NCBI GenBank assembly: GCA_043743335.1
Contig: JAYTWR010000149.1
Location: 11,924 to 75,923, forward strand
Direction: 5' to 3'
Source: Burkholderiales bacterium
GTDB taxonomy: Bacteria; Pseudomonadota; Gammaproteobacteria; Burkholderiales; SG8-41
DNA length: 64,000 nucleotides
Positions 5,394-54,712 of the stretch are shown piece by piece. A program made the translations under genes and the position numbers. The notes under the pieces are model-generated. The model was not told the origin of the DNA. It saw nothing but the letters and a program-made list of their open reading frames with translations, and did no database searches. Every line of letters starts with the position of its first letter. The first letter of the stretch is position 1.

Positions 5394-6407
5394 ATGAAAG
5401 CAGTGGTATTGAACGAACACGGCGGTCTGGAAAAATTGCAGATCGTGAACGATTTTCCCGACCCGGTGGTGGTGGAGGGGCACGTCGTTATCAAAGTCGG
5501 CGCGACGTCGTTTAATTATCACGATGTGTTCACGGTGCGTGGCATGCCCGGCATCAAGGTGCCGATGCCGATGATTATTGGCTTGGATATCGCGGGCGAA
5601 ATTCTTGAAGTCGGTAGCGGCGTTAGCGGCGTTAGCGGCTGGAAAAAAGGCGACCGCGTGCTGGTGAATCCGCTCAACAAGAAAAAGGGCTTGATGGGCG
5701 AAATGATGCACGGCGGTCTAGCGGAAAAATGTCTGGTAGCTGCCGATCAATTGATTGCCATGCCGAACGAGGTGAGCTACGAACAAGCCGCCTCGCTGCC
5801 GGTGGCTTACGGCACGGCGCACCGCATGATCATCACTCACAACACCATCAAAAAAGGTGACAAGGTACTGGTGCTGGGCGCGAGCGGCGGCGTGGGTACG
5901 GGGTGCGTACTGCTGGCGAAAATGCTGGGCGCGGAAGTCATTGCCTGCGCTTCGAGTGCAGACAAAATCCAGCGCTTGAAAGACCTCGGTGCGGATCACG
6001 TCATCAATTACAAAGACACTGATTTCTCCAAGTGGGCCATCGAAAAATTCGGCAAGCCGCAACGCCGCAACAACGAAGGCGGCGTGGATGTGGTGATCAA
6101 CTTCACGGGCGGCGATACGTGGGGGCCGACGCTGCGTTGCGTGAAACGCGGCGGCAAAATTCTGGTGTGCGGTGCAACGGCGGGCTACGACCCGAAAGAA
6201 GACCTGCGCTATGTGTGGAGCTTTGAGTTGCAGATCATCGGCTCCAACAGCTTTTACGACGAGAACCTCAAAGCGCTGATGGACATGATTCAGCAAGGCA
6301 CGATGAAGCCGGTGATCGACGAAGTACTGCCGCTGGAACGCGCTGCCGAGGGCCTGCGTTTAATTGAAAACCGCGAAGTGTTTGGCAAGGTCATCATAAA
6401 ACCGTAA
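5394..6407 (+). CDS. zinc-type alcohol dehydrogenase / quinone oxidoreductase (MDR family)
   Basis: 337 aa with GDRV, the GASGGVG Rossmann motif and MDR length. Contains an in-frame 9-bp triplication (GSGVSGVSG). Confidence 0.85.
   Translation: MKAVVLNEHGGLEKLQIVNDFPDPVVVEGHVVIKVGATSFNYHDVFTVRGMPGIKVPMPMIIGLDIAGEILEVGSGVSGVSGWKKGDRVLVNPLNKKKGLMGEMMHGGLAEKCLVAADQLIAMPNEVSYEQAASLPVAYGTAHRMIITHNTIKKGDKVLVLGASGGVGTGCVLLAKMLGAEVIACASSADKIQRLKDLGADHVINYKDTDFSKWAIEKFGKPQRRNNEGGVDVVINFTGGDTWGPTLRCVKRGGKILVCGATAGYDPKEDLRYVWSFELQIIGSNSFYDENLKALMDMIQQGTMKPVIDEVLPLERAAEGLRLIENREVFGKVIIKP
5613..5639 (+). repeat. 9-bp tandem repeat x3, in frame in the MDR dehydrogenase
   Basis: GGTAGCGGC GTTAGCGGC GTTAGCGGC encodes GSGVSGVSG. 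Confidence 0.9.
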
Positions 6408-6434
6408 CTAATTGATTTTATTGAGTTATTTTAA
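6405..6434 (-). repeat. AT-rich junction element, exact core (6405-6417)
   Basis: TAACTAATTGATTTTATTGAGTTATTTTAA. It begins with the ADH stop codon and ends 7 nt before the next ATG. Confidence 0.85.
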
Positions 6435-6440
6435 CGGCAC

Positions 6441-8003
6441 ATGACCACCGCCCTGCCCTTCATCCCCTGCCCCGAGCCTCGCGGCTACGCTGGCAATCTC
6501 GGTGCGCTGTTCACCGCACACGCGAGGCTGACGCGCACCGCGCTGGTCGATATGAGCAACGCCACGCAGTCGCGCGAGGTGAGTTTTCGCGCGCTGGATG
6601 ACGCCTGCAATGCCGTGGCGCGCGGGCTCCTGCGCGCCGGTCTTCAAGCCGGTGACCGCATCGGCGTACTCTCGCTCAACCGCGTGGAATTTGTCGCGAC
6701 GGTGCTGGGTGCCATGCGTGCGGGCGTGGTGCCGGTGCCCGTCAACATTAAGCTCGCCCCTGACAGCGCGCACTACATCCTCAACGATGCGGGTGCCAAG
6801 CTGGTGTTCGTCGAAAGCGCGTACTGTAAGCTGTGCCCGGACGGCGTGCGTGTGGTGACGTTCGGCGAAGACTTCGACACGTTTCTCGATGCTGGCCCGT
6901 TTGATGCCATCGAACCCACGCCCGATACCGTTGCGATTCAGCCGTATACGTCTGGCTCAACAGGCCAGCCCAAGGGCGTGCTGTTAACGCACTACGGGCA
7001 AAACTGGAGCCGCTTGATCCTGGCTCACACGCGTCGCACCACAGCGGCGGACGTGATTTTGGTGGCTGCGCCGCTGTATCACAAGAACGCGCTCAACGCG
7101 ATCAAGCAGGGTCTCACCGCTGGTGCGCAACTGGTGCTGATGCCGCAATTCAACATCGAGCGCTACATCGAAGCCATGGGCCGCTATCGCGCCACGGTGA
7201 TTTCCGGCGTGCCGACCATGATGTCCATGCTGCTCACGCGTCGCGAGTTGCTGGCGAAGATTGACACGAGCGGCGTGCGTACGGTCATGATGGGGTCTGC
7301 GCCCTCCTCTGCGCAGTTGTTGCGTGAACTGAAAACCGTGTTCCCCAACGCCGAAGCCTTGGTGGTGTATGGCGTGACGGAAGGCGGCCCGGTGCCGCTG
7401 GGGCCGCACCCGGCAGGCATGGCGCGTCCGGCAGGTTCGATCGGCTTTCCGTATGCGGGCACCGAAGCCAAACTGGTGGGCGGTGCCACGCCTAACGACG
7501 AGGCGAACGAAGCGGCGAACGAAGCGGCGAACGAAGGTGAGCTGGTGCTCAAAAACCCCGGGGTCCTGCTGGGCTATCACAACCTGCCTGCCGAGACCGC
7601 TAAACGCATCCGCGATGGCTGGTATTACAGCGGCGACATTTGCCGGCGCGACGCTGAAGGTTTTTACTACTTCGTCGGACGTAACGACGACATGTTTGTG
7701 TGCGGGGGCGAAAATATTTTCCCGATTGAAGTCGAGTCACTGCTGGAAAAACACCCCGCCGTGCACCAAGCCCATGTCATGCCCTTCGAGCACGCGCTGA
7801 AAGACAAAGTGCCCTACGCTTTTGTGGTGCTGCGCAATAACCAAAGTGCCAGCGAAGACGATCTCAAGCAATTCGCGCTGGCCAACGGCCCGGCGTATCA
7901 GCATCCACGCCGCGTGTTTTTTCTCGATCAGTTGCCACTGGCCGGCACCAACAAAATCGATCAACAGCAGTTGCGGCGCGTCGCGACTGGGAATAAACAG
8001 TAG
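6441..8003 (+). CDS. AMP-dependent acyl-CoA synthetase/ligase
   Basis: YTSGSTGQPKGV AMP-binding motif, GYHN, GDICRRDAEGFYYFVGRNDD. Carries an in-frame 12-bp x3 repeat. Confidence 0.85.
   Translation: MTTALPFIPCPEPRGYAGNLGALFTAHARLTRTALVDMSNATQSREVSFRALDDACNAVARGLLRAGLQAGDRIGVLSLNRVEFVATVLGAMRAGVVPVPVNIKLAPDSAHYILNDAGAKLVFVESAYCKLCPDGVRVVTFGEDFDTFLDAGPFDAIEPTPDTVAIQPYTSGSTGQPKGVLLTHYGQNWSRLILAHTRRTTAADVILVAAPLYHKNALNAIKQGLTAGAQLVLMPQFNIERYIEAMGRYRATVISGVPTMMSMLLTRRELLAKIDTSGVRTVMMGSAPSSAQLLRELKTVFPNAEALVVYGVTEGGPVPLGPHPAGMARPAGSIGFPYAGTEAKLVGGATPNDEANEAANEAANEGELVLKNPGVLLGYHNLPAETAKRIRDGWYYSGDICRRDAEGFYYFVGRNDDMFVCGGENIFPIEVESLLEKHPAVHQAHVMPFEHALKDKVPYAFVVLRNNQSASEDDLKQFALANGPAYQHPRRVFFLDQLPLAGTNKIDQQQLRRVATGNKQ
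7500..7535 (+). repeat. 12-bp tandem repeat x3, in frame in the AMP-ligase
   Basis: GAGGCGAACGAA GCGGCGAACGAA GCGGCGAACGAA encodes EANEAANEAANE. Confidence 0.9.
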
Positions 8004-8139
8004 CTGACGGCAACGCCAGTTCAAGTGTGCTACCGTTCAACAGCTTGTATTCGGTACCGGGTCATGAATAGACGTAGCTTCCCTCCCCCTCCCCTCCAAA
8101 CCACACCACTCCACTTCATCAACCAAAAGGAATCACCGC

Positions 8140-8883: not shown

Positions 8884-8903
8884 TCGAATAAAAGCATTTT
8901 AGC

Positions 8904-8932
8904 CACAGAGGTCACCGAGAACACAGAGAAAA
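8904..8932 (+). repeat. CACAGAGG-type element, copy 1
   Basis: CACAGAGGTCACCGAGAACACAGAGAAAA is about 80% identical to 32393-32421. Both lie about 20 nt after a plus-strand stop codon. Confidence 0.6.
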
Positions 8933-8990
8933 ACAACAGGGCTAACAGATCACCCGAGGCCCTTTATTGCGAAGCACTGCGGTTCGGCAC

Positions 8991-9069
8991 GTCGTTGTTT
9001 TTCCTCGTTGTTCTCGTTGTTCTCGTTGTTCTCGTTGTGCTCGTTGTTCTCGTTGTGCTCGTTGTTCTC
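8991..9069. repeat. 9-bp minisatellite (CTCGTTGTT/G), 7 full units plus degenerate ends
   Basis: Units counted at 9004-9066. Intergenic, between convergent genes; the ORFs across it are repeat translations. Confidence 0.9.
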
Positions 9070-9108
9070 TGCACCCGCTGTGGCAAAAGCGGTTTTTGAT
9101 TAAGTCGT

Positions 9109-9855: not shown

Positions 9856-9884
9856 AAAATACTCAATAAAATCAATTAGTTATG
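9856..9884 (+). repeat. AT-rich junction element, exact core AATCAATTAGTTA (9870-9882)
   Basis: AAAATACTCAATAAAATCAATTAGTTATG abuts the rlmB start codon (9853-9855) and fills most of the rnr-rlmB spacer. Confidence 0.85.
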
Positions 9885-9902: not shown

Positions 9903-12260
9903 TCACCCTTCATCCAGCACAAAGTCAATGCGCGCTGAATCCAAATTCGCCCGTGCCACTTTCACGCGCACGCGGTCGCCCAAACGAAAGCGTCGCTTGG
10001 TGCGCTCGCCCAATATTTGATGGCGGGCGGCGTCAAAGTGAAAGTAATCCTTGCCCAAATCCGACACGTGCACCAGCCCTTCGGCGTAAATGTCATCCAG
10101 CGCGACAAAAATGCCGAAGCCGGTGACGCCGCTGATGCTGCCGTTATAGCTCTCGCCCACTTTGTCCTGCATGTAATAGCACTTAAGCCAGTTGGTCACA
10201 TCGCGCGTGGCCTCGTCGGCGCGGCGTTCGGTCATGGAGCATTGCTCGCCGAGCGTAATCCAGTCGCCGGGTTCGTAGCGTTTTTTCTCCAGCACCGCTT
10301 TGATGGCGCGATGTACCAGCAAGTCGGGGTAACGGCGAATGGGTGATGTGAAGTGGGTGTAGGACTCGTATGCTAAGCCAAAATGTCCAGCGTTTTTCGG
10401 GGTATACACCGCCTGCTTTAGCGAGCGCAGCATGACCGTTTGCAGCAATTGCGCATCAGGCCGGTCGCGCACTTTGGTGAGCAGCGCGGCGTAATCCTTG
10501 GCATGCGGTTTGTCGCCGCCACTCAAGTCAAAGCCAAAGCCGCCGAGAAATTCACGCAGCGCAGCCAGTTTTTCCGGCGTGGGGCCTTCGTGCACACGAT
10601 AGAGCATAGGCTGACCGTGCTCCGCGAGAAAATCCGACGCGCACACGTTGGCCGCCAGCATGCACTCCTCGATCACGCGATGCGCGTCGTTACGCTTGAC
10701 CGGCACAATGCGCTCGATCTTGCGCTGATCGTTGAAAATGATTTCGGTCTCGGTGGTTTCGAAATCAATGGCACCGCGCTTTGCGCGCGCCTTCACCAGT
10801 TTGCCGAACAAGGTGTAGAGATTCTTCAATTGCGGCAACAGCTTTTGCTGCTCTGGCGTGCCGGCTTTGCTGTCGGCCAGCATCGCGGCAACCACGGTGT
10901 AAGTGAGCCGCGCATGCGAGCGCATCACCGCTTGATGAAAACTGTAATCGGTGATTTTGCCTTGCGCGCTGACGGTCATGTCGCAGGCCATGCACAAGCG
11001 ATCCACGTGGGGATTGATGGAGCACAAGCCGTTCGACAAATGTTCCGGCAGCATGGGAATCACCTGCCGCGGGAAATACACCGAGTTGCCGCGCTGCTGC
11101 GCTTCCACATCCAGCGCATCGCCGGGCTTCACATAAAAACTGACATCGGCAATCGCCACAATCAGCCGGAAGCCGCCTCTGCCGTGCGGCCCGCAATACA
11201 CCGCGTCGTCAAAATCACGTGCGGTTTCGCCATCGATGGTGACCAGCGGCAATTCGCGCAGATCCAGCCGACCTTTGCAGTCGCGCGCGCTGACTTCAGG
11301 TGAATACTTCGCAGCGAGCTTTTCCACGTCGGGCGGAAACTCGTGCGGTAACGAATGCTTGCGCAGCGCGATTTGGATTTCCATGCCGGGGTCGCCGTAG
11401 CTGCCGAGCACTTCAACCACGCGCGCCACCGGCTGGCTGTGGCGCTGTGGTTGTTCAATCAAATCAACCGTCACCACCTGCCCCGGTTTGGCATTGCCGG
11501 TCTGGCCCGGCGGCACCATGAATTCCTGACTGATGCGCTTGTCTTCGGCCACCACAAAATACACTCCGTGGCGGTTTTGCAGCCGGCCCACGTGGCGCGT
11601 TTTTGCGCGTTCTAGGATTTCCGCGATTTTGCCTTCGGGGCGTCCGCGCCTATCCATGCCGCTGATGCGCGCCATTACCCGATCGCCGTGCAGCACTTTG
11701 CGCATTTCGTCGGGGCCCAGAAACATGTCCGGCCCTTTGTCATCGCGCACCAAAAAGCCGAAGCCATCGGGGTGCCCTTGTACGCGACCGGCCACGAGAT
11801 TTAGTTTTTCGACGATGCAAATCGCGTCTCGCCGGTTGCGCATGATCTGGCCTTCGCGCTCCATTGCGCCCAGACGCCGCGTGAACTGTCGGATTTCGTC
11901 GGCTTGAATGCTGAGCAGTGCGCACAGTTCGTGCTCTGCCACCGGTACGCCCTGCTCTTTCAGCGTGGCGAGGATGAATTCGCGGCTGGGTAGCGGGTTT
12001 TCGTAGCGCAATACTTCCCGGTTATAGAACGGGTCGCGTTGATTGCGATCGGTGAGCGCGGAGTGCTCCGGCGGGCTGGTCACAAGGCGCGCCGTGCGGG
12101 CTGGGCGTGGTTCACGCGGATCACGCGGATCACGTGCCGCGCGTGAAATGCGCGCGGTGCGCGGCTTTTTGCCGGCGGCGACCGGCGCTTTGGTTTTAGC
12201 CGTGCGCGAGGTGCGCGCCGGATTGGTGCTGAGGGCGGATTTCTTTTTAGGTGTTTTCAT
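9903..12260 (-). CDS. rnr: ribonuclease R
   Basis: 785 aa with RNB domain motifs (TIDGETARDFDDAV, FTSPIRRYPDL), a C-terminal S1 domain and a basic N-terminal extension. Confidence 0.9.
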   Translation of the reverse strand: MKTPKKKSALSTNPARTSRTAKTKAPVAAGKKPRTARISRAARDPRDPREPRPARTARLVTSPPEHSALTDRNQRDPFYNREVLRYENPLPSREFILATLKEQGVPVAEHELCALLSIQADEIRQFTRRLGAMEREGQIMRNRRDAICIVEKLNLVAGRVQGHPDGFGFLVRDDKGPDMFLGPDEMRKVLHGDRVMARISGMDRRGRPEGKIAEILERAKTRHVGRLQNRHGVYFVVAEDKRISQEFMVPPGQTGNAKPGQVVTVDLIEQPQRHSQPVARVVEVLGSYGDPGMEIQIALRKHSLPHEFPPDVEKLAAKYSPEVSARDCKGRLDLRELPLVTIDGETARDFDDAVYCGPHGRGGFRLIVAIADVSFYVKPGDALDVEAQQRGNSVYFPRQVIPMLPEHLSNGLCSINPHVDRLCMACDMTVSAQGKITDYSFHQAVMRSHARLTYTVVAAMLADSKAGTPEQQKLLPQLKNLYTLFGKLVKARAKRGAIDFETTETEIIFNDQRKIERIVPVKRNDAHRVIEECMLAANVCASDFLAEHGQPMLYRVHEGPTPEKLAALREFLGGFGFDLSGGDKPHAKDYAALLTKVRDRPDAQLLQTVMLRSLKQAVYTPKNAGHFGLAYESYTHFTSPIRRYPDLLVHRAIKAVLEKKRYEPGDWITLGEQCSMTERRADEATRDVTNWLKCYYMQDKVGESYNGSISGVTGFGIFVALDDIYAEGLVHVSDLGKDYFHFDAARHQILGERTKRRFRLGDRVRVKVARANLDSARIDFVLDEG
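12112..12135. repeat. 9-bp tandem repeat x2.7 in the rnr 5' coding region
   Basis: TCACGCGGA TCACGCGGA TCACGT encodes PRDPRDPREP on the minus strand. Confidence 0.85.
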
Positions 12261-12544: not shown

Positions 12545-13887
<1,343 letters not shown>

Positions 13888-13892
<5 letters not shown>

Positions 13893-15056: not shown

Positions 15057-15248
15057 TCAGACCTTCACTAAAAATAGCAGCAGCAGCCCGATAATCATCG
15101 AGGTCAACCCAAAGAAGCGAATTTGTCCGTCGGTCAATTCGGTCAATCGGCGAAACGCATCACGCCAGATGCCGGGCGCCAAAAACGGCAGCATGCCCTC
15201 GATCACCAGCATCAAAGCCACTGCGGTGAGGAGCAGTTGTGTGTTCAT
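15057..15248 (-). CDS. DUF2065-like small membrane protein
   Basis: 63 aa with two TM helices in the conserved slot between hflC and hisZ. Confidence 0.6.
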
Positions 15249-17486: not shown

Positions 17487-17523
17487 GACTTAACGGGATT
17501 CAACAAGACTCAACGGGACTCAA
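17487..17523. repeat. about 20-bp imperfect tandem duplication in the hflX-hflK spacer
   Basis: GACTTAACGGGATTCAA...GACTCAACGGGACTCAA. It shares the word TTAACGGGAT with the rpmF leader array. Confidence 0.6.
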
Positions 17524-22777: not shown

Positions 22778-23536
22778 TTGAATTTTAATAAAATAGCACT
22801 CACCGCCCTCGTAACCTCGGTAACGGCGTTCGCTGGCGCACCCGCGCAGGCCAATACCTACCAATCATTCCTCGAATATACCAACGTCAGTCAGTTCGGC
22901 AGCACCAGCGGTTCGGCCCTCGGCATTCCCAAGCTCACCACGCCTGTCGGCACGGTCACCGTGACTGAAGGTGGTCTCAATGGCAACGGACACTATACCT
23001 ATCTGGATGTCGCTGTTCAGATCAATAGCGGCTTTCGGCTGATCGATGTCGGTAGCCATGAGTTGTTTTCGTATAACTTGACCCAGCCGTCAGCGGTAAC
23101 CATTTCATTTGTCGATCCGAGCAAGTTCGCGACATTTTCTGGCACGCCCTCAACCAATCCGCCTTTTGGCCCGTCGTTTTCCAATGCCGTCACCTGTAAT
23201 ACGGCTAACTACAGTTGCCAAGCCAATACCGGCGGCTCACCGGGCAACCAACTGCTGTTTAGAATCACCGACAAAGCCGGCGGTCCCGACGGGATAGAGG
23301 TTGGCCCGCCAGCGCATGCCGCAACCGCTTTGGTTAATCAATTGATATCCACCGCCGACGGCTGGTGGTTCGCCACCGACCTCGCAAACGCCAATGGCAA
23401 CACGGGTGCCGTCGGTGCACGCGATTTCGTAGTCTTCACCGCCGTACCGGAACCCCAAACCTACGCCATGATGCTGGCGGGCTTGGGTCTGATGGGTTTT
23501 GTGGCCCATCGCCGCAGAAAGCAGCAGGCGGCGTAG
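22778..23536 (+). CDS. PEP-CTERM sorting-domain protein (TTG start)
   Basis: GGAG SD 7 nt upstream of TTG, signal peptide ...AFAGAPAQA, and C-terminal VPEPQTYAMMLAGLGLMGFVAHRRRK. Confidence 0.8.
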   Translation: MNFNKIALTALVTSVTAFAGAPAQANTYQSFLEYTNVSQFGSTSGSALGIPKLTTPVGTVTVTEGGLNGNGHYTYLDVAVQINSGFRLIDVGSHELFSYNLTQPSAVTISFVDPSKFATFSGTPSTNPPFGPSFSNAVTCNTANYSCQANTGGSPGNQLLFRITDKAGGPDGIEVGPPAHAATALVNQLISTADGWWFATDLANANGNTGAVGARDFVVFTAVPEPQTYAMMLAGLGLMGFVAHRRRKQQAA

Positions 23537-23660: not shown

Positions 23661-23680
23661 CTAACTAATTGTTTTATATG
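23661..23680 (-). repeat. AT-rich junction element, variant core (23662-23674)
   Basis: CTAACTAATTGTTTTATATG; the terminal ATG is the MoxR start codon. Confidence 0.7.
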
Positions 23681-24592
23681 ACAAAAATAAACGAGGCTCT
23701 CGCGCAGGTCAGTCACATCATTTTGGGTAAAGAGCGCCAAATCCGCTTGGCCCTAGCGTGCCTGATCGCGCGCGGCCATTTGTTGATTGAGGACGTGCCC
23801 GGCGTCGGCAAAACCACCCTCGCCCACGCGTTAGCCGGCACCTTGGGGCTGGCGTTTCACCGCATCCAGTTCACCAGCGATTTACTGCCGGCGGATGTGC
23901 TGGGCGTGGCGGTATACAACAGCGACGCCGCCCAATTTGAGTTCCACCCCGGGCCAATTTTTTCGCAGGTGGTGCTGGCCGACGAAGTCAACCGCGCTAC
24001 ACCCAAAGCGCAAAGCGCGTTGCTCGAAGCCATGGAAGAACAGCAGGTCACTATCGAAGGCGAAACGCGCAAACTGCCGGAGCCCTTTTTTGTCATCGCC
24101 ACGCAAAATCCCTCACGCCAGATCGGCACGTTTCCGCTGCCGGAGTCGCAACTGGATCGCTTCTTAATGCGTATCGAACTCGGCTACCCAGACGCCGCTG
24201 CCGAACGCGCGCTGCTGCGCGGTGAAAACCGCCGCGATTTGCTGAGTCAACTTAAGCCTGCCTTGCAGCCCGCCGATTTGCTGGCGCTGCAGCGCGAGGC
24301 GCGGCAGGTGCATGTCTCCGACGCGCTGCTCGATTACATCCAAGCGCTGGTCAACCACACGCGCCACAGCGCCGGTTACGCGGGCGGCCTATCGCCGCGC
24401 GCGGCACTGGCGCTGGTGCAGGCCGCGCGCGCTTGGGCGCTGCTGGATGCGCGTACACACGCCGTGCCGGAAGACGTGCAAGCCATTCTGCCGGGCGTGG
24501 TGAGTCACCGGCTGCAAGCCGCCAACGATGGCAGCGGCGGCAGTGGCAATGACGTGGCGGTGCGTCTCTTGGCTGCGGTGGCGATTCCGTAG
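23678..24592 (+). CDS. MoxR-family AAA+ ATPase
   Basis: LIEDVPGVGKTT Walker A, ADEVNRATPKAQSALLEAMEE, FFVIATQNP. Confidence 0.9.
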   Translation: MTKINEALAQVSHIILGKERQIRLALACLIARGHLLIEDVPGVGKTTLAHALAGTLGLAFHRIQFTSDLLPADVLGVAVYNSDAAQFEFHPGPIFSQVVLADEVNRATPKAQSALLEAMEEQQVTIEGETRKLPEPFFVIATQNPSRQIGTFPLPESQLDRFLMRIELGYPDAAAERALLRGENRRDLLSQLKPALQPADLLALQREARQVHVSDALLDYIQALVNHTRHSAGYAGGLSPRAALALVQAARAWALLDARTHAVPEDVQAILPGVVSHRLQAANDGSGGSGNDVAVRLLAAVAIP

Positions 24593-24622
24593 CACAGGCA
24601 CCTGACAGCGCACCCTGAATTC

Positions 24623-32392: not shown

Positions 32393-32421
32393 CACAGAGG
32401 CCGCAGAGGACACATAGGACG
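32393..32421 (+). repeat. CACAGAGG-type element, copy 2
   Basis: CACAGAGGCCGCAGAGGACACATAGGACG, about 20 nt after the CoxG stop codon. Confidence 0.6.
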
Positions 32422-34832: not shown

Positions 34833-34858
34833 TTAAAACAATTACTTACAATTACTTC
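34829..34858 (+). repeat. AT-rich junction element with duplicated core (variant AAACAATTACTTA, 34836-34848)
   Basis: TCATTTAAAACAATTACTTACAATTACTTC. ACAATTACTT occurs twice in tandem. The copy carries the tmk stop, the holB start and the tmk tail. Confidence 0.75.
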
Positions 34859-38620: not shown

Positions 38621-38654
38621 GAACATGGGACATGGGATATCGAACATGGGACAT
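38621..38654. repeat. direct repeat GAACATGGGACAT x2 (21-bp period) in the acpP-fabF spacer
   Basis: Copies at 38621-38633 and 38642-38654, with an internal ACATGGG doublet. Confidence 0.8.
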
Positions 38655-40759: not shown

Positions 40760-40808
40760 AAATTATTCAATAAAATCAAATAGTTAAATAGTTAAATCGT
40801 TAAATACG
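40760..40808 (+). repeat. AT-rich junction element, exact core (40774-40786), followed by an 8-bp tandem array
   Basis: TTATTCAATAAAATCAAATAGTT then AAATAGTT AAATCGTT AAATACG. It spans the whole fabH-fabD spacer, including the fabH stop. Confidence 0.85.
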
Positions 40809-41798
40809 AACCATGACTGCGCCCCAGGTAAACCCGCCGCCCACCCCTTCGAGCAGCACGTGCTGCCCCGGCTTGATGCGGCCATCACGCACCGCCGTGT
40901 CGAGCGCCAGCGGCACCGATGCGGCTGAAGTGTTGGCATGACGATCCACCGTGGTCACCACTTTGTCCATCGGCAACGCGAGCTTTTTCGCCGTAGCCTG
41001 AATGATACGGATATTGGCTTGGTGCGGTATCAGCCAGTCGATTTGCGATTTGTCCATGTGGTTGGCGACGAGCGCCTCGTCGGCCACCTCGCCCAGCACG
41101 CGCACCGCGAATTTGAACACCGCATTGCCTTCCATTTGCAACAGCGGCCGTCCGCTCACTTGCCCGCGATTCACGCTGCCCGGCACGGAAAGAATATGCG
41201 CGTGGCTGCCATCCGCATGCAAATGCGTGGATAAAATACCCGGCGTGTCGCTACGCCGCAAAACCACCGCGCCCGCGCCGTCGCCGAACAACACACAAGT
41301 GGTGCGATCCTGCCAATCGAGGATGCGCGAATACACCTCCGCGCCCACCACCAGAATATTTTGATACTGCCCCGAGCGCATGAAATGATCGGCCGTGGTC
41401 AGCGCGTAAACAAAGCCGCTGCACACTGCCTGCACATCAAACGCCGGACAATTTTTAGCGCCGAGCTTGGCCTGTAAAATGCACGCCGTGCTGGGGAACA
41501 CCATATCCGGCGTGGTGGTGGCGACAATAATCAGACTCAAATCCGCCGCATTGGTGCCCGCCGCTTCCAGCGCGCGCTGGCTGGCTTTGAGTGCGAGATC
41601 ACTGGCGAATTCGTGGTCCGCAGCGATGTGACGCTGGCGTATGCCGGTGCGGCTGAATATCCATTCGTCCGAAGTCTCGACGCTACCTTCGAGGTCTTTA
41701 TTGGAAAGCACCTTGGCTGGCAGGTAGCTGCCCGTGCCGACGATGCGCGAAAAGTGAGTCAAGTGAGGCGTCAGGTGAGGCGTCAATGGAGGCGTCAA
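40800..41798 (-). CDS. fabH: 3-oxoacyl-ACP synthase III (probable true start TTG at 41762)
   Basis: [11 protein letters not shown], active-site [16 protein letters not shown]. The longest ORF adds [12 protein letters not shown], encoded by a 12-bp tandem array. Confidence 0.92.
41754..41798. repeat. 12-bp tandem array at the plsX-fabH junction
   Basis: GTGAGGCGTCAG GTGAGGCGTCAA TGGAGGCGTCAA plus a partial unit. On the minus strand each unit starts with an in-frame TTG or CTG and encodes LTPH. Confidence 0.85.
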
Positions 41799-42859
41799 GC
41801 GGCAATTCCGTTATTCTGCGGCAGCGGTGCCTGCGCCTGCGACTGCACATGGATATGCGTCAGGCGCTCCGAGATATGCGCCAGCATGCCGGTGCGCACT
41901 TCTTCGACCGCGCGCCGCAACGCGCATTCAAAACTGTAGGCGTCCGCCGAGCCGTGGCTCTTCAACACAATGCCGCGCAAGCCCAGCAAACTCGCGCCAT
42001 TGTAGCCCCGATAATCCACGCGCTTTTTGAATGAATTTAGCACCGGCATCGCCACTATCGCCGCGAGTCGCGTAAAAATATTGCGGGCAAATTCTTCGCG
42101 CAAAAACGTGCGAATCAAATGCGCCAGTCCCTCGGCCGATTTCAGCGCGACATTGCCGACAAACCCATCGCACACCACCACGTCGGTGGTGCCTTTAAAA
42201 ATATCGTTGCCTTCGACGTTGCCGTAAAAATTGAGATCGCTGGCGCGCAGCAACTCGGCAGCGCGTTTCACCACCTCGTTACCCTTGATGTCTTCTTCGC
42301 CGATGTTGAGCAAGCCCACCGTCGGCGCGGTTTTGTGCTCCACGCAGGCCACTAACTCTGAACCCATGATGCCGAATTGCAGCAAATGCTCGGCAGTGCA
42401 ATCGACGTTCGCCCCGAGATCCAGCACATACACTTTGCCGGTGAGCGTGGGCATGATCGAGGCAATCGCTGGCCGGTCGATGCCCGGCAGCGTCTTCAAC
42501 ACATAGCGCGAAATCGCCATCAGCGCGCCCGTATTGCCCGCGCTCACAGCGGCCTGCGCCTCGTTGGATTTCACCAGATCGGCCATCACGCGCATGGACG
42601 AATCTTTCTTGGAGCGCATGGCCACTGCGGGCGGCTCATCCATGCCCACCACTTCGGAGGCGTGACGTACCACCAGCCGGTCGCCAAACGCGGCGGGGCT
42701 GGATTTATTGAGTTTGAGTTGCGCCTCGATTTCGGCAGCAAGGCCCACGAGGACCACCCCGGCGTCGGCGTCATCGCGCAGCAAGCCGAGCGCCGCAGGC
42801 ACTGTGACCGAGGGGCCGTGATCGCCCCCCATGCAGTCAACCGCTACCGTTACCCGCAT
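41795..42859 (-). CDS. plsX: phosphate acyltransferase PlsX
   Basis: [16 protein letters not shown] and CDGFVGNV. The upstream in-frame extension to 42943 has no support. Confidence 0.92.
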
Positions 42860-42965
42860 CTGAAACTGGCTTGGGTGGTTCGCCGGGATTTCACTGAGGC
42901 ATCGCCTGAACGTCGCGCAGACGTCGCGCGGACGTCGCTGCAACCGCGAGCCTGCTCAAGCGCGG

Positions 42966-43160: not shown

Positions 43161-43190
43161 GATTAACGGGATATTAACGGGATACTAACT
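43161..43190. repeat. 11-bp tandem repeat x2.7 in the rpmF 5' leader
   Basis: ATTAACGGGAT ATTAACGGGAT ACTAACTG, immediately upstream of the rpmF SD. Confidence 0.85.
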
Positions 43191-43199: not shown

Positions 43200-43228
43200 T
43201 TATAACTAATTGATTTTAATAAATATTA
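43200..43228 (-). repeat. AT-rich junction element, exact core (43202-43214)
   Basis: TATAACTAATTGATTTTAATAAATATTAT in the yceD-rpmF spacer. Confidence 0.85.
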
Positions 43229-43817: not shown

Positions 43818-43971
43818 AATTCACTTCGCCCGGCCCCACTTGCGCACCCGTTTTCGGGCGCGCGCAATCACGTGCGCAATCCCACACGCAATCCACACAA
43901 TGCCCGCAGCGCACGTAAACCATCAATGATAGTATTTCCACGCGCCTTTGTCAAAGCTGAAAATCAGAAAC

Positions 43972-44635: not shown

Positions 44636-44656
44636 TGTAACTATTTGATTTTATAC
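44636..44656 (-). repeat. AT-rich junction element, exact core (44638-44650)
   Basis: TGTAACTATTTGATTTTATAC sits just after the maf stop, where the Bug pseudogene's signal peptide should be. Confidence 0.8.
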
Positions 44657-44680
44657 GGATTTTTAACATCAACCAGCCAA

Positions 44681-45120
44681 GCCGCTGACACCTACCCCGC
44701 AAAAAGCATACGCCTCATACACGGCTACGCCTCCGGCAGTTCTATGGACCTCAACGCCCGAGCCGTCGCGCAAAAACTCGCCGAAGCGCTGGGTCAGCAA
44801 ATCATCGAATGCTGCACGTGCCGTATCGCGGCGGCGGCACCACCGCCATCACCGATCTCGTCAGCGGCCGCGTCGATATGATGTGGAACAACCTCGCCTT
44901 CCTGCTGCCGCAGGTGCAAATCGGCAAACTCAAAGCGCTCGGCGTCACCGGCGTGCGCCGCATCTCCAGCATCAAGCACGTGCCGACCATCGCCGAAAGC
45001 GGCCTGCCCGGCTATGAAATCGCTGGTTGGCAAGGCCTACTCGGCCCCGCTGCGCTGCCGAAAGACATCGTTGCGCGACCGCAAAGCGCGCTGGTGAAAA
45101 TCTTTGCGCAACCTTGCTAG
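44681..45120 (+). pseudogene. Bug/TctC-family receptor, internally deleted and frameshifted
   Basis: N-terminal piece (TYPAKSIRL...LGQQIIE) joins out of frame near 44800 to the mid/C-terminal piece (LHVPYRGGG...GWQGLLGPAALPKDIV). About 110 aa are missing and there is no signal peptide. Confidence 0.7.
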
Positions 45121-45141
45121 CAGAGCGCGCAAATGCCGCCG

Positions 45142-45426
45142 TCAATCCGCTTGAAAAAGCCGCTTGATAACGCGCCATCTCAAACCAAAATCCGCGTCGC
45201 TTTCAGGGAGTTGCCAAACGTCATGCAAATGATCCGGCATCACGCAATACGTAATACGTAATACGTAATACGCCAGCGAGCGGAATGCGTGGCCTGCCTG
45301 TGCAACCCAAAACGCATTGCGCAGGCGATCAATCTCCGTTACCCGCATGCGGCTTTCGCAATCGGCAAGATTGACCGTGAAAAAGAATGTCCCACCCGAG
45401 GCGAGACTTCGTCGATAGCGCGACAT
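45142..45426 (-). pseudogene. RayT/IS200-like (Y1 HUH) transposase, N-terminal fragment
   Basis: MSRYRRSLASGGTFFFTVN...PDHLH..W.LPESDADF..RW matches the REP-associated tyrosine transposase N-terminus. It ends at 94 aa, lacks the catalytic Tyr region, and carries a 7-bp tandem expansion. Confidence 0.7.
45242..45274. repeat. 7-bp tandem repeat (ACGTAAT) x4.7 inside the RayT-like fragment
   Basis: ACGCAAT ACGTAAT ACGTAAT ACGTAAT ACGCC. Three extra units insert 7 aa (YVLRITY) next to the HUH motif. Confidence 0.9.
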
Positions 45427-45438
45427 GAAGCACCGTTA

Positions 45439-45736
45439 TCACGCACGCTTGTTCGCGTGGGCACGCTGCGCTTTGCCTGCCCTTGCTTGCTTCACCGCCT
45501 CAATGATCGCGATCTCGTGCTTTAAAAGATCATTGGCCAGCGCCGACACCGGCACCCCCTTGCGCCCCCTTGCGTTGTGCTAGGTGCGCAAGATACGCCT
45601 GCACCTCGGCATCCAGATACACCGGCAGATTAAGCTTTGCATTCGGTCGATAAAACTGCCCGCGCACCCCTCCTCTGAAATCGATCTCGGCAGGCATATC
45701 CCCATCATTGCTGGGGGGCTGGTTCGCTGCGCTCAT
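45439..45736 (-). pseudogene. RHH/CopG-type antitoxin-like gene disrupted by a 10-bp tandem duplication
   Basis: The annotated frame ends ...AQRKGAQGGAGVGAGQ*. Removing one copy of CGCAAGGGGG restores ...AQRKGVPVSALANDLLKHEIAIIEAVKQARAGKAQRAHANKRA*, which ends at 45439. Confidence 0.6.
45555..45574. repeat. 10-bp tandem duplication causing a frameshift
   Basis: CCCCCTTGCG CCCCCTTGCG. Confidence 0.9.
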
Positions 45737-45753
45737 CGCATCACTGGGTTGGT

Positions 45754-46182
45754 TCAATCGGCGCGGATCACCGCCAGCGCCTGCGCCGCCGGCACAATGC
45801 GCATGCCTCGACACTGCTTCAGATTCAGCAAATCCGAGTCGCCCGACACGATGGCGTCGGCTTGCGCCGAGAGCGCGCAGGCGATCACATGATCGTCATC
45901 GGCATCGGCGGTGACGATACCCTCGATGATTGCCGTTGCCGCAAAATTCACGATGGCGATATAGCGGGCCACGCACCGATCCGCCGTTTCACCGCTGACG
46001 GTTAAGCGCTTGACCAACTTCGGATAAGCCAGCACCTCGCGCAACTCCGCCACCAGCACCGCGCTGGTGTAAAGCTCAGCGGCGCCATCAAGCGCCGCAT
46101 CCAACAAGCGGCGTGGCGGGCCATTCCACAACAGCCCCGAAATAACCGTATTCGTATCCAGCACCAGCCGCAGCGTGGGCAT
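45754..46182 (-). CDS. PIN-domain toxin (TA system)
   Basis: LVLDTNTVISGL, ...DDDHVIACALSAQADAIVSGDSDLL. Its start overlaps the upstream antitoxin stop. Confidence 0.8.
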   Translation of the reverse strand: MPTLRLVLDTNTVISGLLWNGPPRRLLDAALDGAAELYTSAVLVAELREVLAYPKLVKRLTVSGETADRCVARYIAIVNFAATAIIEGIVTADADDDHVIACALSAQADAIVSGDSDLLNLKQCRGMRIVPAAQALAVIRAD

Positions 46183-46427
46183 CAGCCCGTGCCGCGTTGG
46201 CGCCGCTCGGCACGATAAGCGCGCACCTCGGCCACGATCTCCTGCTCGATCTCGTCCGTGAGGGGTTCCGGCATGCGCGCCCACATCTCGCGTAACGACT
46301 CGCCAGCCCTGCGGCGCTCCTCCTGAGTGGCCAGAAAGCTCACAAAATCAGCCACCTGTCCCAAGCGTTCAGGCGACAGAATCTTTAACTTCTCAATCAG
46401 CGCTTCGGCAGTAATCGGGGCATTCAT
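46182..46427 (-). CDS. putative antitoxin (DUF2281-like) of the PIN toxin
   Basis: 81 aa, LIEKLKILSPERLGQVADFVSFLA; translationally coupled to the PIN gene (TGATG overlap). Confidence 0.6.
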   Translation of the reverse strand: MNAPITAEALIEKLKILSPERLGQVADFVSFLATQEERRRAGESLREMWARMPEPLTDEIEQEIVAEVRAYRAERRQRGTG

Positions 46428-46548
46428 GGGCAACCTCCTGAGCAGCGCTGTACGCCGCAAAAACCAAACCCGAATCATCATACCACTCGCACCACCCCCC
46501 ACGATCAGTCAGCGCGTAACCCGCCCTACGGGTTGCTCGGACGGCGAG

Positions 46549-48642
46549 CTACTTCAGCCGCATCACCGCATCAACAGCTACCGCTCCGTGCCCGTCAACC
46601 CCCACAATCACCGGATTGATCTCCACCTCCGCCAGCCTATCCGCGTGATCGGCAATCAGCCACGACACGCGGCTGACCGTATCGGCTAGCGCGTCAATAT
46701 CGCACGCGGGTTTGCCGCGATAACCTTGCAGGATTTTCGCGCCCTTGAGGCGCAGCACGAGTTCTCGTGCGCTGGCCGCATCGAACGGCGCATAGGCACG
46801 CACCACGTCCTGAAACAGCTCGGCATACACGCCGCCCATGCCCAGCATGACCAACGGGCCGAATGAGGGGTTGTTGAGCGCGCCGATGATGAACTCGACG
46901 CCAGTGGCCATTTCTTCCACCAGCCAGCCACGGATGCGCGCCGTGGGTTGATGCGCAGGCACGGCCTGCTGCATCATCATAAGTGATTGTTTTAATTGAG
47001 TAATATTGGATATGCTAATACGCACGCCGCCGGCTTCGGTTTTGTGCGGCAAGTCGGGACTGACGACTTTGAGTGCCACCGGAAAATTCAGCTCACAGCG
47101 TGCGAGCGCGGCCTCGTCGCCCGCCGCGATGAACATCCGCCGGGGCGTGGCGATGCCGTAAGCGGCTAGGCAAGCTTTGCCCTGCAATTCATCCACGCCG
47201 TCGGTGCCGTTCATCGGCAGCGGCTGTTTTGCGCAAGCGCGCACCGGCGCGCGCCGCACGGCGGCCCGCTCGCACTGGCGTGTGAAATGATTCAATGCCG
47301 CAGCGGCAAACACCAAGCGGCTCGGCGCTTCAAAACACGGCACGCCGCCGGCTTCTACCGTCGGCAACCACGATGCTGAGTCGTTGACGGCACCGGAGAG
47401 GCTGACGAGTATGGGCTTATCACTGGCGTTGGCATCGGTGACAAAATGCTCGGCCCACACGGGCGCGTCGCGCCCTGGATACGAGCGCAAAAACAGCATG
47501 TCCACGTTGGCGTCATCGAGCACAGCTTGTGTGGCTGCGCGAAACGCGGGTTCGTTTTGTGCGATGGCGGCGGTGATGTCGATGGGGTTCGCCATCGACG
47601 CAAAATCCGGCAGCACGGGTTTTAACGCTGCCAGTGTCGACGCGCTCATAGCCGGCAGCGCCAACTGCGCGCGCTCGCAGGCATCAGCCAGCAACACCCC
47701 TGCTCCGCCGCTGGCGGTGACGATCGCGGCTCGGTTGCCGCGCGGGCGTTTGCGCGAACGAAACACGCGCGCGGCGTCAATCAAATCGTAAATTTCATGA
47801 ATCTCAATAAAGCCGCCTTCACGAAACGCGTCACGATAATAATCGTAATCTTCAGTGAGATTGGCCGTGTGCGACACCGCTGCGCGACTACCGGCGTGCG
47901 TGTTGCCGACTTTCCACACCGCGATGGGCTTACCGATTTCGAGCGCGCGGCGGCCCAGCGCGCGCAGGCGTTTGCCGTCGCTGATGCCTTCCATGTACAC
48001 CGCGATCAACTTGGTGGCTTCGTCGGCGAGAAAATACTCGATGAAATCCAGCGCACCCAAGCTGCTTTCATTGCCGGTAGAAACCATGTGGTCAAAGCCG
48101 ATGCCAGCTTCTTGGCAGAACGTCATGATCGAATAGGCAAAGCCGCCGCTCTGCGAAATCATCGCCACCGGCCCGCCGCGCCAATCGGTCTTGCGAAACG
48201 TCGCGCCGAATCCGGCAAACACGCGCGTGCGCAAATTCATCATACCGATGCAATTGGGCCCCACCGCGCGTACGCCGGAGGTTTTAAGCGCCGCCTGTAA
48301 TTGCGCTTCGAGCGCTGCACCCCGTTCGCCGATTTCGCGAAAGCCCGCGCTCAAAATCACCGCGTGGGTCATGCCGTTGCGCCCGCAGGCTTCGATGGCG
48401 CCGGGCACATCCACCGCCGGCACCGCGATGACCGCCAAATCACAGCGCTGCGGCAGCGCGTCGGGGCTGGCGTAACACGGCAAGCCGTTGATTTCGGTGT
48501 AGCGCGGATTCACCGCAAATACCTTACCGGCGTAGCCCTGATGCGTCAGCAAGTGCAGCGGCGCGCCACCCGGCCGACGCCTATCCTGCGTGGCGCCGAC
48601 AATGGCCACGGATGACGGGTTGAACAGCGGCTCTAGTGACAT
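46549..48642 (-). CDS. ADP-forming acyl-CoA synthetase (CoA-binding + succinyl-CoA-ligase-like + ATP-grasp fusion)
   Basis: SVAIVGAT...YAGKVFAVNP, AVGPNCIGMM, C-terminal ATP-grasp region; 697 aa. Contains an in-frame AT-rich element copy. Confidence 0.8.
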   Translation of the reverse strand: MSLEPLFNPSSVAIVGATQDRRRPGGAPLHLLTHQGYAGKVFAVNPRYTEINGLPCYASPDALPQRCDLAVIAVPAVDVPGAIEACGRNGMTHAVILSAGFREIGERGAALEAQLQAALKTSGVRAVGPNCIGMMNLRTRVFAGFGATFRKTDWRGGPVAMISQSGGFAYSIMTFCQEAGIGFDHMVSTGNESSLGALDFIEYFLADEATKLIAVYMEGISDGKRLRALGRRALEIGKPIAVWKVGNTHAGSRAAVSHTANLTEDYDYYRDAFREGGFIEIHEIYDLIDAARVFRSRKRPRGNRAAIVTASGGAGVLLADACERAQLALPAMSASTLAALKPVLPDFASMANPIDITAAIAQNEPAFRAATQAVLDDANVDMLFLRSYPGRDAPVWAEHFVTDANASDKPILVSLSGAVNDSASWLPTVEAGGVPCFEAPSRLVFAAAALNHFTRQCERAAVRRAPVRACAKQPLPMNGTDGVDELQGKACLAAYGIATPRRMFIAAGDEAALARCELNFPVALKVVSPDLPHKTEAGGVRISISNITQLKQSLMMMQQAVPAHQPTARIRGWLVEEMATGVEFIIGALNNPSFGPLVMLGMGGVYAELFQDVVRAYAPFDAASARELVLRLKGAKILQGYRGKPACDIDALADTVSRVSWLIADHADRLAEVEINPVIVGVDGHGAVAVDAVMRLK
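46980..47010 (-). repeat. AT-rich junction element copy inside a CDS, in frame (variant core 46980-46992)
   Basis: TAAGTGATTGTTTTAATTGAGTAATATTGGA. The reverse complement aligns to AAAATACTCAATAAAATCAATTAGTTA and encodes SNITQLKQSL in the acyl-CoA synthetase. Confidence 0.75.
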
Positions 48643-48672
48643 AACTAGTTGATTTTATTGAATATTTTTTAA
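48640..48672 (-). repeat. AT-rich junction element, exact core (48642-48654)
   Basis: CATAACTAGTTGATTTTATTGAATATTTTTTAA carries the acyl-CoA synthetase start codon, the deacetylase stop codon and the deacetylase tail LKNIQ. Confidence 0.85.
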
Positions 48673-49491: not shown

Positions 49492-49511
49492 GACGTTTCC
49501 GATGCGCTGTC

Positions 49512-49547
49512 GATGGGCATTACGATGGGCATTACGATGGACATTAG
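49512..49547. repeat. 12-bp tandem repeat x3 upstream of the deacetylase gene
   Basis: GATGGGCATTAC GATGGGCATTAC GATGGACATTAG, about 20 nt upstream of the start at 49491. Confidence 0.9.
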
Positions 49548-49688
49548 CGTGATGCATTTTAGCCGGTTTCGCCACGACGGCTGTGCAGTACAGGCGTGTG
49601 GACTTGACCGGCTACGCGTGGTTCGAGATACTCGCTCGCGCTTCGGACGAGCCACACAATCGCGCCGTGGCGTACACCCTTGAAAAGC

Positions 49689-49730
49689 GCCATTCGACAT
49701 CCGCCATCCGACATTCGCCATCCGCGCCAC
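49689..49730. repeat. 14-bp tandem repeat x3 upstream of the LLM oxidoreductase gene
   Basis: GCCATTCGACATCC GCCATCCGACATTC GCCATCCGCGCCAC, ending 12 nt before the ATG at 49743. Confidence 0.85.
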
Positions 49731-53803: not shown

Positions 53804-53839
53804 AGCCCGGCGCAGTTTTACACTGCGCCGGGCTTTTTG
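53804..53839. terminator. bidirectional rho-independent terminator
   Basis: AAAAAGCCCGGCGCAG...CTGCGCCGGGCTTTTT: a 12-bp GC stem flanked by an A-run and a T-run, between convergent genes. Confidence 0.85.
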
Positions 53840-53854
53840 TTGAAATGCGCAGGA

Positions 53855-54667
53855 TCAGTTGGGCTTTTGCAGCAACACCTGATGCGGTGCTGGCACCGGC
53901 CACACGTGAGTGGCGCCTACTTCGGCAATGGCCTTGTTGGCGTCAAAAAACACCTGCCAGTAATCTTTGTTATTGCAGTACGGGCGCACACCCAGCAAGG
54001 TGCCCGCTGCGTTGAATTCCAGAATTTCCACGTCCGGCGCGGGGCTTTTCACCACATTGGGCAGTAGCGCCAGGCGCGTCTTGAGCTTGGCTATGGCGTC
54101 GCGGGGATCAACGCTGTGCGCGAGCTGGCATTTCAAATCGACACGACGATACGGATTGGCCGTGTAGTTGACGACATTATCGGCAAGTATTTTGCCGTTG
54201 CCGACATACACGCGCAGATTGTCCACCGTATGCAGCGTGGTGACGAACATGCCCATTTCCACCACGTCGCCCGTGACGCCGCCTGCTGTGATCATGTCGC
54301 CCACTTTGAACGGGCGCAGCAGTACCAAAAACGCACCGGCAGCAAAATTCGCCAACAGGCCTGACCATGCCGCGCCAATGGCGATACCCGCCGCTGCAAG
54401 CAGTGCAGCAAAGCTGGTGGTCTCGATGCCGAACACCGACAGTACCGCGAGCACCAACACGATACGCAGCAACACGCGGATACACGAATCTGCGTATTTG
54501 ATTAACGTGGGGTCAACCTTGCGCGACGTCATGCCGTCGGTCGCCAATTTCAACAAAAAGTTGATGACAAATCCACCGATAATCCAAAGCGCAATCGCCC
54601 CCAATATTTTGGTGCCGGCATTCAGCGCGTAGGTGGTGAGTAATTGCGTGTTAATCCAATCGGGCAT
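53855..54667 (-). CDS. small-conductance mechanosensitive channel (MscS family)
   Basis: Three N-terminal TM helices, then LRPFKVGDMI...G.V.E..MF.T. Confidence 0.85.
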   Translation of the reverse strand: MPDWINTQLLTTYALNAGTKILGAIALWIIGGFVINFLLKLATDGMTSRKVDPTLIKYADSCIRVLLRIVLVLAVLSVFGIETTSFAALLAAAGIAIGAAWSGLLANFAAGAFLVLLRPFKVGDMITAGGVTGDVVEMGMFVTTLHTVDNLRVYVGNGKILADNVVNYTANPYRRVDLKCQLAHSVDPRDAIAKLKTRLALLPNVVKSPAPDVEILEFNAAGTLLGVRPYCNNKDYWQVFFDANKAIAEVGATHVWPVPAPHQVLLQKPN

Positions 54668-54694
54668 GGTGGCTCCTTTTTGTGCTTATAAATC

Positions 54695-54712
54695 GGGATG
54701 GGGATGGGGATG
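54695..54712. repeat. 6-bp tandem repeat (GGGATG) x3 upstream of the MscS gene
   Basis: GGGATGGGGATGGGGATG, about 30 nt upstream of the start at 54667. Confidence 0.85.

Follow-up and report, generated by a model that had tools for sequence, protein, structure and literature searches.

Short tandem arrays with units of 6–15 nt are in excess at gene junctions in a 64-kb stretch of an uncultured Burkholderiales genome

In Neisseria, Haemophilus and Campylobacter, contingency loci are long tracts of 1–7 nt units that shift the reading frame or the promoter spacing, and they act on surface, restriction-modification or virulence genes. Here we analysed short tandem arrays in a 64,000-nt stretch of a Burkholderiales genome (from the 87-kb contig JAYTWR010000149.1 of GenBank assembly GCA_043743335.1; hereafter the window). 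A preliminary description had reported an unusually high density of 6–14 bp tandem duplications in this DNA, both in genes and in 5' leaders. The arrays exist, their excess is limited to units of 6–15 nt, and they are lineage-specific derived insertions in places that tolerate them. Like contingency loci, they include tandem repeats near gene starts; unlike contingency loci, they form short tracts of long units, units in coding sequences (CDSs) are multiples of three, and the genes are housekeeping genes.

A closer comparison is offered by Burkholderia pseudomallei and B. mallei, which belong to the same order (U'Ren et al. 2007, PMC1853098). With a criterion of Tandem Repeats Finder (TRF) arrays >30 bp with ≥80% similarity, B. 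pseudomallei has 70–102 arrays per Mb, compared to 37 per Mb in Y. pestis and 13 per Mb in B. anthracis; 68–75% of its arrays lie between genes, and those within genes have mostly triplet units (PMC1853098). By the same criterion, the window contained 7 arrays, which corresponds to 109 per Mb from 64 kb sampled, against 30 per Mb in 1.87 Mb of control loci. As in B. pseudomallei, units are mostly 6–14 nt long, arrays are mostly intergenic or near gene starts and clustered along the chromosome, and units are non-triplet outside genes and triplet inside them. In contrast, the window has 2–4.6 copies per array (7.3 in one case) instead of 4–21, none of the units recurs elsewhere in it, and mutation rates were measured in Burkholderia only. 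Moreover, the lineage is uncultured and distant from Burkholderia, and its nearest relatives lack the high density. The window probably represents a tandem-repeat-rich Burkholderiales genome of a known kind, moulded by slippage and selection. What sets it apart is a matter of quantity that known processes explain, and no novel type of element is involved.

Another comparison comes from yeast, where rad27/FEN1 deficiency causes insertion-biased ABA to ABABA duplications and expansion of minisatellite units and palindromes (PMC5677150, citing Tishkoff et al. 1997). The window likewise shows what appear to be ABA to ABABA duplications via short direct repeats, expansion of units of minisatellite size and expansion of a palindrome. 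However, the yeast data are an experimental spectrum in a eukaryotic mutant, whereas the window is a static genome sequence, and the likeness, although the nearest among described signatures, is one of resemblance only.

Related loci were used as the control because real genomes always exceed shuffled sequences. A first set of 78 syntenic loci (1.2 Mb) from a GTDB scan of relatives was extended with 80 metagenome loci to 158 loci (1.87 Mb). Genes were mapped with a self-trained codon model, which replaced a GC3-only map that overlooked known genes. As a strict statistic we counted stretches of exact periodicity ≥18 nt with a period of 6–15, in place of an exact 6-mer doublet statistic that was dominated by chance matches.

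TRF recovered each array of the preliminary description within a few bases, including those in leaders and spacers at 17487, 38621, 40778, 41754, 43161, 49512/49689 and 54695, and gave further arrays at 31881, 42910, 43875, 32390, 364 and 15130. At score thresholds of ≥30, ≥40, ≥50 and ≥60 the window held 44, 20, 10 and 5 arrays, whereas 40 dinucleotide shuffles gave 15.4, 2.15, 0.33 and 0.05. The density at score ≥50 was 0.16 per kb, compared to 0.058 per kb in the controls. By the strict statistic, the window contained 13 arrays (0.203 per kb), against 0.042 per kb in the 158 loci and 0.77 arrays expected per shuffled window. Among 20,000 pseudo-windows of 64 kb resampled from the controls, the mean was 2.7 and the maximum 10.8, such that 13 was never reached, and no strict array occurred in 50 kb of syntenic E. 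coli K-12 DNA. The reported high density is thus borne out: the window exceeds its relatives about fivefold overall and about 13-fold in non-coding sequence. A much weaker version of the excess is present in the closest relatives.

Could these arrays be due to chance or to faulty assembly? The weak arrays (TRF scores 30–39) are near the shuffle background, and some echo the periodicity of a dispersed motif described below. Yet 10 arrays at score ≥50 contrast with 0.3 in shuffles. Furthermore, short-read Logan contigs from two sequencing runs matched 23.6 kb of the window, 14 arrays included, with 100% identity, which implies that these 14 are not assembly artefacts; the arrays at 5615, 7494, 9004, 45242 and 45555 lie outside the contig cover. 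We therefore give chance or artefact hardly any weight as an explanation of the arrays. No copy-number difference was found between the two runs over the 14 arrays, although the runs may represent one strain. Contigs of both runs (L001 and L002) stop exactly at 39289, inside fabG; this shared end suggests an assembly-graph branch caused by a repeated k-mer or by a strain variant.

The window has a G+C content of 58.6% and mainly core housekeeping content: hfq-hflX-hflK-hflC, hisZ-purA, rnr-rlmB, the block yceD-rpmF-plsX-fabH-fabD-fabG-acpP-fabF-pabC-mltG-tmk-holB, and lpd with the 2-oxoglutarate dehydrogenase genes. Matches of holB, FabD and FabH place it in the Burkholderiales. Its nearest sequences are contigs of uncultured metagenome-assembled genomes (MAGs), with at most 90% identity in FabD and 89% in FabH, while FabD is ~70% identical to that of Burkholderia and Paraburkholderia. 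With these as the best matches, scans of GTDB and JGI revealed no conspecific sequence. Exact-protein look-ups matched contigs of the same strain only and yielded no strain-level copy-number variation. Nearly all proteins of the window were singletons at 90% identity among ~15 billion sequences, and the species is therefore essentially unsampled elsewhere. We found no literature citing the two SRA runs that match the window (SRR23617269 and SRR22198268).

The excess was confined to a narrow range of unit sizes. Compared to GC-matched controls, units of 6–15 nt were 6.2-fold enriched, homopolymers ≥7 nt reached only 0.56-fold and trinucleotides 1.1-fold, and tetra- and pentanucleotide arrays were not observed in the window in this comparison. 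The sole other excess concerned alternating (CG)n runs of 8–12 nt, of which 37 were present against 17 expected from GC-matched related loci, about twofold, despite overall CpG and GpC frequencies equal to those of the related loci. A general slippage or mismatch-repair weakness was considered and rejected, as simple sequence repeats (SSRs) of 1–5 nt were not in excess apart from the twofold (CG)n. MutS handles loops up to ~4 nt. Together with the 6–15 nt specificity, this disfavours the mismatch-repair genes that had been named as candidates.

The arrays were also unevenly placed. Of the 20 arrays with a TRF score ≥40, 14 were intergenic or straddled a gene end, in ~14% of the sequence. Strict arrays in non-coding sequence and junctions reached 1.02 per kb, against 0.076 per kb in the controls (Poisson p=4e-8), whereas the four inside CDSs did not differ significantly from the 2.0 expected (p=0.14). 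Periods that are multiples of three were found in 15/20 arrays in CDSs versus 10/23 outside (one-sided Fisher p=0.037); the triplet bias in genes proposed earlier thus has the right direction, but its significance is weak. The proposal that selection filters the insertions fits the concentration of arrays outside genes, and the verified insertions within genes lie in surface loops.

Most arrays consisted of identical units apart from one or two that had diverged, as a rule those at the edge, and they ended in partial units of 1–11 nt. This combination is the usual anatomy of slipped-strand products. Relatives have a single copy at the plsX/fabH and fabH/fabD junctions, in the rpmF leader and at the malonyl-CoA decarboxylase stop, and the arrays are therefore lineage-specific derived insertions. 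The arrays at 34838 and 12112 failed this insertion test, and those at 32390 and 49511 could not be aligned to relatives. In three arrays the upstream gene's stop codon lies within the unit.

Our favoured explanation, to which we assign a probability of roughly 0.7, is that the arrays are young slippage products, retained where an insertion costs nothing, and not designed elements. Replication slippage between short direct repeats would convert ABA into ABABA, after which units would be gained and lost. Tolerated sites would include intercistronic spacers, 5' leaders, the loop of a terminator hairpin, and decaying mobile and addiction-module genes. A duplication spanning a stop codon would leave the upstream protein unchanged and merely lengthen the spacer. 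Within proteins, insertions would be tolerated in surface loops or disordered tails, with a unit length that is then a multiple of three. Both the slippage mechanism and the neutrality of the arrays are inferred.

Arrays were clustered in the yceD-to-fabF operon, where five of the seven junctions had one and the array-bearing spacers were the longest among the orthologs compared. The acpP-fabF spacer, itself the longest among the relatives compared, contains a terminator-like hairpin whose loop holds a 7 bp x4.6 array (38623–38654; mRNA sense CCCAUGU, 76% matches). At the fabH stop, upstream of the fabD ATG, an 8 bp x3.6 array (40778–40806; ATTTAAC[G/T] on the minus strand) repeats ATTTAAC three times including the fabH TAA stop, whereas relatives read TAACTATTTG... 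once; this array also repeats the 5' half of the AT-rich junction motif described below. In relatives, the plsX stop and fabH start simply overlap by 4 nt (GCTTGA); in the window, three additional units of 12 bp give a 12 bp x3.5 array (41758–41799) with the TTGA overlap in each unit. Hence, four in-phase TTG codons (41762–41798, minus strand) precede the conserved FabH N-terminus, and gene callers consequently disagree on the fabH start: the Logan and NCBI calls give 332 residues, and the TTG that aligns with relatives gives 320.

The rpmF-plsX spacer holds an 11 bp x2.6 array (42910–42938). Directly 5' of the rpmF Shine-Dalgarno sequence lies an 11 bp x2.5 array (43162–43189; mRNA sense AUCCCGUUAAU); this 11-bp duplication, upstream of the conserved TTAATCGAAGGAG, is missing in the relatives L081, L082, L004 and L007. 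Finally, the divergent yceD-maf spacer has an 11 bp x2.1 array (43875–43898), downstream of a promoter-like site (43954–43926, minus strand, 11/12 match). Operon spacers of the closest relatives together contained three arrays of ≥16 nt, compared to 0.06 expected in shuffles.

This clustering raises the question whether leader and junction arrays are tuning elements, whose copy number would set the stop-start distance or the 5' untranslated region (UTR) length, and hence translational coupling and operon stoichiometry. Besides the clustering itself and the arrays in the spacers of close relatives, such a role is consistent with the position of some arrays, 18–27 nt before a start codon or right next to a Shine-Dalgarno sequence on its 5' side, and with unrelated rpmF-leader arrays gained independently in the relatives L091 and L070. 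Against it, the array sequences differ between relatives and are not conserved, arrays are just as common in dead genes and in the spacers of convergent gene pairs, where there is no start codon to serve, and copy number did not vary between the two short-read runs. The units also lack a common sequence word, and their spacers lack an RNA structure signal: ten array-bearing spacers folded no better than shuffles (z –0.67 to +1.15), and Rfam found only tRNA in the window. The shared word GGGAT/ATGGG was considered as a common binding site and rejected, as it was not above shuffled units (P=0.47 and 0.79). We consider tuning very unlikely.

Several observations weigh against young, neutral slippage products as the full explanation. 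The density was measured on 64 kb of one genome, in a window that had been pre-selected as unusual-looking, and most of the control loci come from short-read MAGs and have the fab operon at their centre. Among the 13 strict arrays, two (34838 and 12112) do not represent net insertions. The arrays are known here as static sequence, and their instability is presumed. Moreover, pure neutrality does not predict the clustering in one operon, nor do the independent, unrelated arrays in the rpmF leader of the more distant relatives L091 (GTCGAACACCA x3.5) and L070 (AACGAGCAAT x3) sit easily with it. Together with the window's own array, these suggest that short duplications recur in the yceD-rpmF spacer, which would be a hot spot for them. 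A local excess of mutation within this highly expressed operon, or selection acting on the length of its spacers, may account for the clustering.

True arrays within CDSs have units of 9, 12, 9 and 9 nt, all multiples of three, so that a change in copy number cannot shift the frame. A 9 bp x2.8 exact array (5615–5639) in a gene for a protein like medium-chain dehydrogenase/reductase (MDR) quinone oxidoreductases (5394–6407, +) encodes GSGVSGVSG, a loop insertion of three residues relative to the best solved homolog (GPGVE---G in 2eih). In an acyl-CoA ligase gene (6441–8003, +), a 12 bp x3.6 array (7494–7536) encodes NDEANEAANEAANEG, again a loop insertion versus homologs (a 4-residue gap in 8wev). 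The 9 bp x2.6 exact array at 12112–12134 encodes part of the disordered basic N-terminal tail of RNase R (9903–12260, –); all cluster relatives share an (x-P-R)n peptide repeat at this place and differ in it by 3-residue indels, and the window has no net insertion. A fourth, 9 bp x2.0 exact array (15130–15147) lies inside a 63-residue DUF2065 gene (15057–15248, –). Among the four in-frame arrays listed in the preliminary description, those at 5613 and 7500 therefore hold as loop insertions, the one at 12112 adds no net length, and the one at 34838 does not belong in the list: a 10-bp unit cannot be in frame, and the tmk tail of relatives has the same length.

These results also bear on the suggestion that the arrays are contingency loci, i.e., phase-variation loci at which genes are switched via hypermutable SSRs. 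Some arrays lie near start codons, and comparable variable-number tandem repeats (VNTRs) of B. pseudomallei mutate at >1e-5 per locus per generation (PMC1853098). However, instead of long tracts of 1–7 nt units we found 2–4.6 copies (7.3 in one array) of 6–14 nt units, without an excess of short SSRs. The triplet units in CDSs make a frame shift impossible, and the leader arrays are intercistronic or 18–27 nt from start codons and do not appear placed to alter a –35/–10 spacing. The associated genes (rpmF, plsX, fabH, fabD, fabF, hflK and those for RNase R, the acyl-CoA ligase, the oxidoreductase and an MscS-like channel) are housekeeping genes rather than surface, host-interaction, restriction-modification or virulence genes, and the sequences were identical in the two short-read runs over the 14 arrays covered, although these runs may come from one strain. 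We conclude that contingency loci are a highly improbable explanation, and this part of the preliminary description is not upheld.

Other arrays lie at gene ends or in spacers elsewhere in the window. A 14 bp x2.4 array (31881–31913) with a TAA stop in each unit lies at the end of the malonyl-CoA decarboxylase gene (30569–31897, +), before coxG, and the window is ~21 nt longer here than the relative L005. The hflX-hflK intercistronic spacer has a degenerate 10 bp x3.7 array (17487–17523, 74% matches), and a 9 bp x2.1 exact array TGAGGGCTG (364–382) is intergenic, after the open reading frame (ORF) at 29–328. Three arrays precede gene starts: 12 bp x3.0 (49511–49546), 19 nt upstream of a polysaccharide-deacetylase gene (start 49491, –); 14 bp x2.6 (49688–49724), 18 nt upstream of a luciferase-like monooxygenase gene (start 49743, +); and the exact 6 bp x3.0 GGGATG (54695–54712), 27 nt upstream of the MscS-like channel gene (start 54667, –).

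Between maf and an acetyl-CoA-synthetase-like gene lies a small island of decaying or accessory DNA (44680–46430). It contains a frameshifted fragment of a TctC (Bug-family) receptor gene (~44738–45120, +) and a truncated remnant of a REP-associated tyrosine transposase (RAYT; 45145–45426, –; NF047646, E=1.8e-21), which covers profile positions 1–84 of 146 at 76.6 bits versus a cut-off of 80. Within this remnant, just before the HUH motif (MPDHLH), a 7 bp x4.4 array (45242–45272) adds 21 bp, or seven residues, YYVLRIT. It is followed by a frameshifted small ORF, weakly RelB-antitoxin-like (45442–45736, –), with an exact 10 bp x2 duplication (45555–45574). If one 10-bp copy is removed, the two frames fuse into a single ORF of ~95 residues, which indicates that the duplication is the disabling frameshift. 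A PIN-domain toxin gene, apparently intact, and its upstream 81-residue partner occupy 45754–46427 (–). The two arrays at 45242 and 45555 thus do lie in pseudogenes, as had been proposed, and the expectation that non-triplet units occur outside genes or in dead genes is reinforced by a 10-bp duplication that itself killed its ORF.

A putative mobile unit of ~200 nt (8890–9096), resembling repetitive extragenic palindromic (REP) sequences or miniature inverted-repeat transposable elements (MITEs), lies between convergent dienelactone hydrolase and rlmB-like genes. Its 45-nt arms are 71% complementary and 9-bp periodic (GnCACAGAG), and consist of 9-bp tandem units GCCACAGAG GTCACAGAG GACACAGAG. 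The right arm has expanded into a 9 bp x7.3 array at 9004–9069; what had been read as a free intergenic minisatellite at 8991 is therefore an expanded arm of this palindrome. A related palindromic element occurs in the fabH-fabD spacer of the relative L003 (~1960–2040), and the degenerate 9 bp x3.4 array GGACACAGA (32390–32420, 77% matches), between the convergent coxG and ankyrin-repeat genes, has a unit that resembles the arms. Like REP/REPIN-RAYT systems, the element is an intergenic palindrome with a related copy in another spacer, of L003, and the window contains a RAYT remnant (45145–45426). Unlike such systems, the window has only a single copy, the arms are unusual in consisting of 9-bp tandem units, and the RAYT is truncated and 36 kb away.

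The window also contains a dispersed AT-rich junction motif, TAAsTAwTTGwTTTTA, which extends to ~28 nt with a second T-tract (...ttgAgtAtTTTA). It had 22 matches at ≤3 mismatches, compared to 0.27 expected. Example sites are 6405–6420(+), 9867–9882(–), 13875–13890(–), 27589–27604(–), 28463–28478(–), 30528–30543(–), 40771–40786(–), 43203–43218(+), 44638–44653(+), 48642–48657(+), 54856–54871(–) and 61686–61701(+). The motif is almost always intergenic and faces either way with respect to the genes; at some sites (6405, 13875) its leading TAA is the upstream gene's stop, and the next ATG often follows after 12–35 nt, without an obvious Shine-Dalgarno sequence. It recurs at orthologous junctions of close relatives, where it is about fourfold rarer, and is absent in distant relatives. 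Its complement, TAAAATCAATTAGTTA, matches the consensus of integration host factor (IHF), WATCAANNNNTTR, which makes it a candidate binding site.

The weak arrays at 27578, 9850, 30517 and 61690 consist only of the internal periodicity of this motif. The exact 10-mer doublet at 34838–34857, in the last codons of tmk, overlaps the motif as well. We considered this doublet as a duplication and rejected that origin: the tmk tails of relatives are identical in length and have a quasi-repeat at this position, and L006 already has ATTATTGTAAGTAATTGT there. The doublet arose by substitution inside the junction motif.

Elsewhere in the window, the gene for a protein with a PEP-CTERM motif adjoins a cluster of MoxR-type AAA ATPase, DUF58-like and TgpA-type transglutaminase genes (22778–23536, 23678–27591); this cluster has no relation to the arrays.

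Why such duplications are so frequent may be explained in more than one way. If the lineage processed lagging-strand flaps, or replicated its DNA, in a defective or peculiar way (with the Pol I 5'-nuclease, Xni/ExoIX, or a replisome or helicase variant as candidates), short duplications between direct repeats would become more frequent, and the lineage would be a natural mutator similar to rad27/FEN1 mutants. The restriction of the excess to 6–15 nt units, apart from (CG)n, the insertion-type ABA to ABABA anatomy and the expansion of one arm of the palindromic element all point in this direction, and the observed classes match those for rad27-deleted yeast (PMC5677150). The non-coding fraction (13.8% versus 14.0% in relatives) gives no sign of generally relaxed selection. 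However, the ABA to ABABA anatomy is equally expected from ordinary slippage, and deletions are uncountable here. The sole repair or replication gene in the window, holB, looks intact, and the rate in CDSs is not significantly raised. We know of no flap-processing defect in B. pseudomallei. Still, that species matches the density of the window (PMC1853098). Altered flap processing is therefore unlikely in our view.

An equally unlikely cause is ordinary mutational input combined with weak purifying selection, through a small effective population or a recent bottleneck, which would allow slightly deleterious spacer insertions to persist. The truncated RAYT, frameshifted small ORF and TctC fragment, the fourfold higher number of AT-rich motif copies than in relatives and the long array-bearing spacers are compatible with this idea. 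In contrast, coding density equals that of relatives, and gene decay is limited to ~1.1 kb of mobile and addiction-module DNA while housekeeping genes are intact. Furthermore, many arrays are perfect or nearly so, which implies that they are recent rather than slowly accumulated.

A more far-reaching proposal, which we regard as less likely still, is that the lineage is a natural duplication mutator in which altered flap processing or an altered replisome specifically raises 6–15 bp duplications, and in which highly expressed operon junctions are hot spots where arrays re-tune translational coupling. The hot spots in this proposal would be the plsX/fabH and fabH/fabD junctions and the leader of rpmF.

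Returning to slippage products retained at tolerated sites, a duplication across an overlapping stop and start leaves both proteins intact, which makes such junctions safe places for insertions. Junction duplications are thereby raw material for uncoupling overlapping genes, and they make start-codon annotation ambiguous, as for fabH with its in-phase TTG codons. Should the rest of the genome show the same excess, the Burkholderiales would gain a second tandem-repeat-rich genome, this one from an environmental and uncultured organism. Its arrays would then provide ready-made VNTR markers for strain tracking, and a natural system in which to study what sets the rates of short duplications in bacteria.

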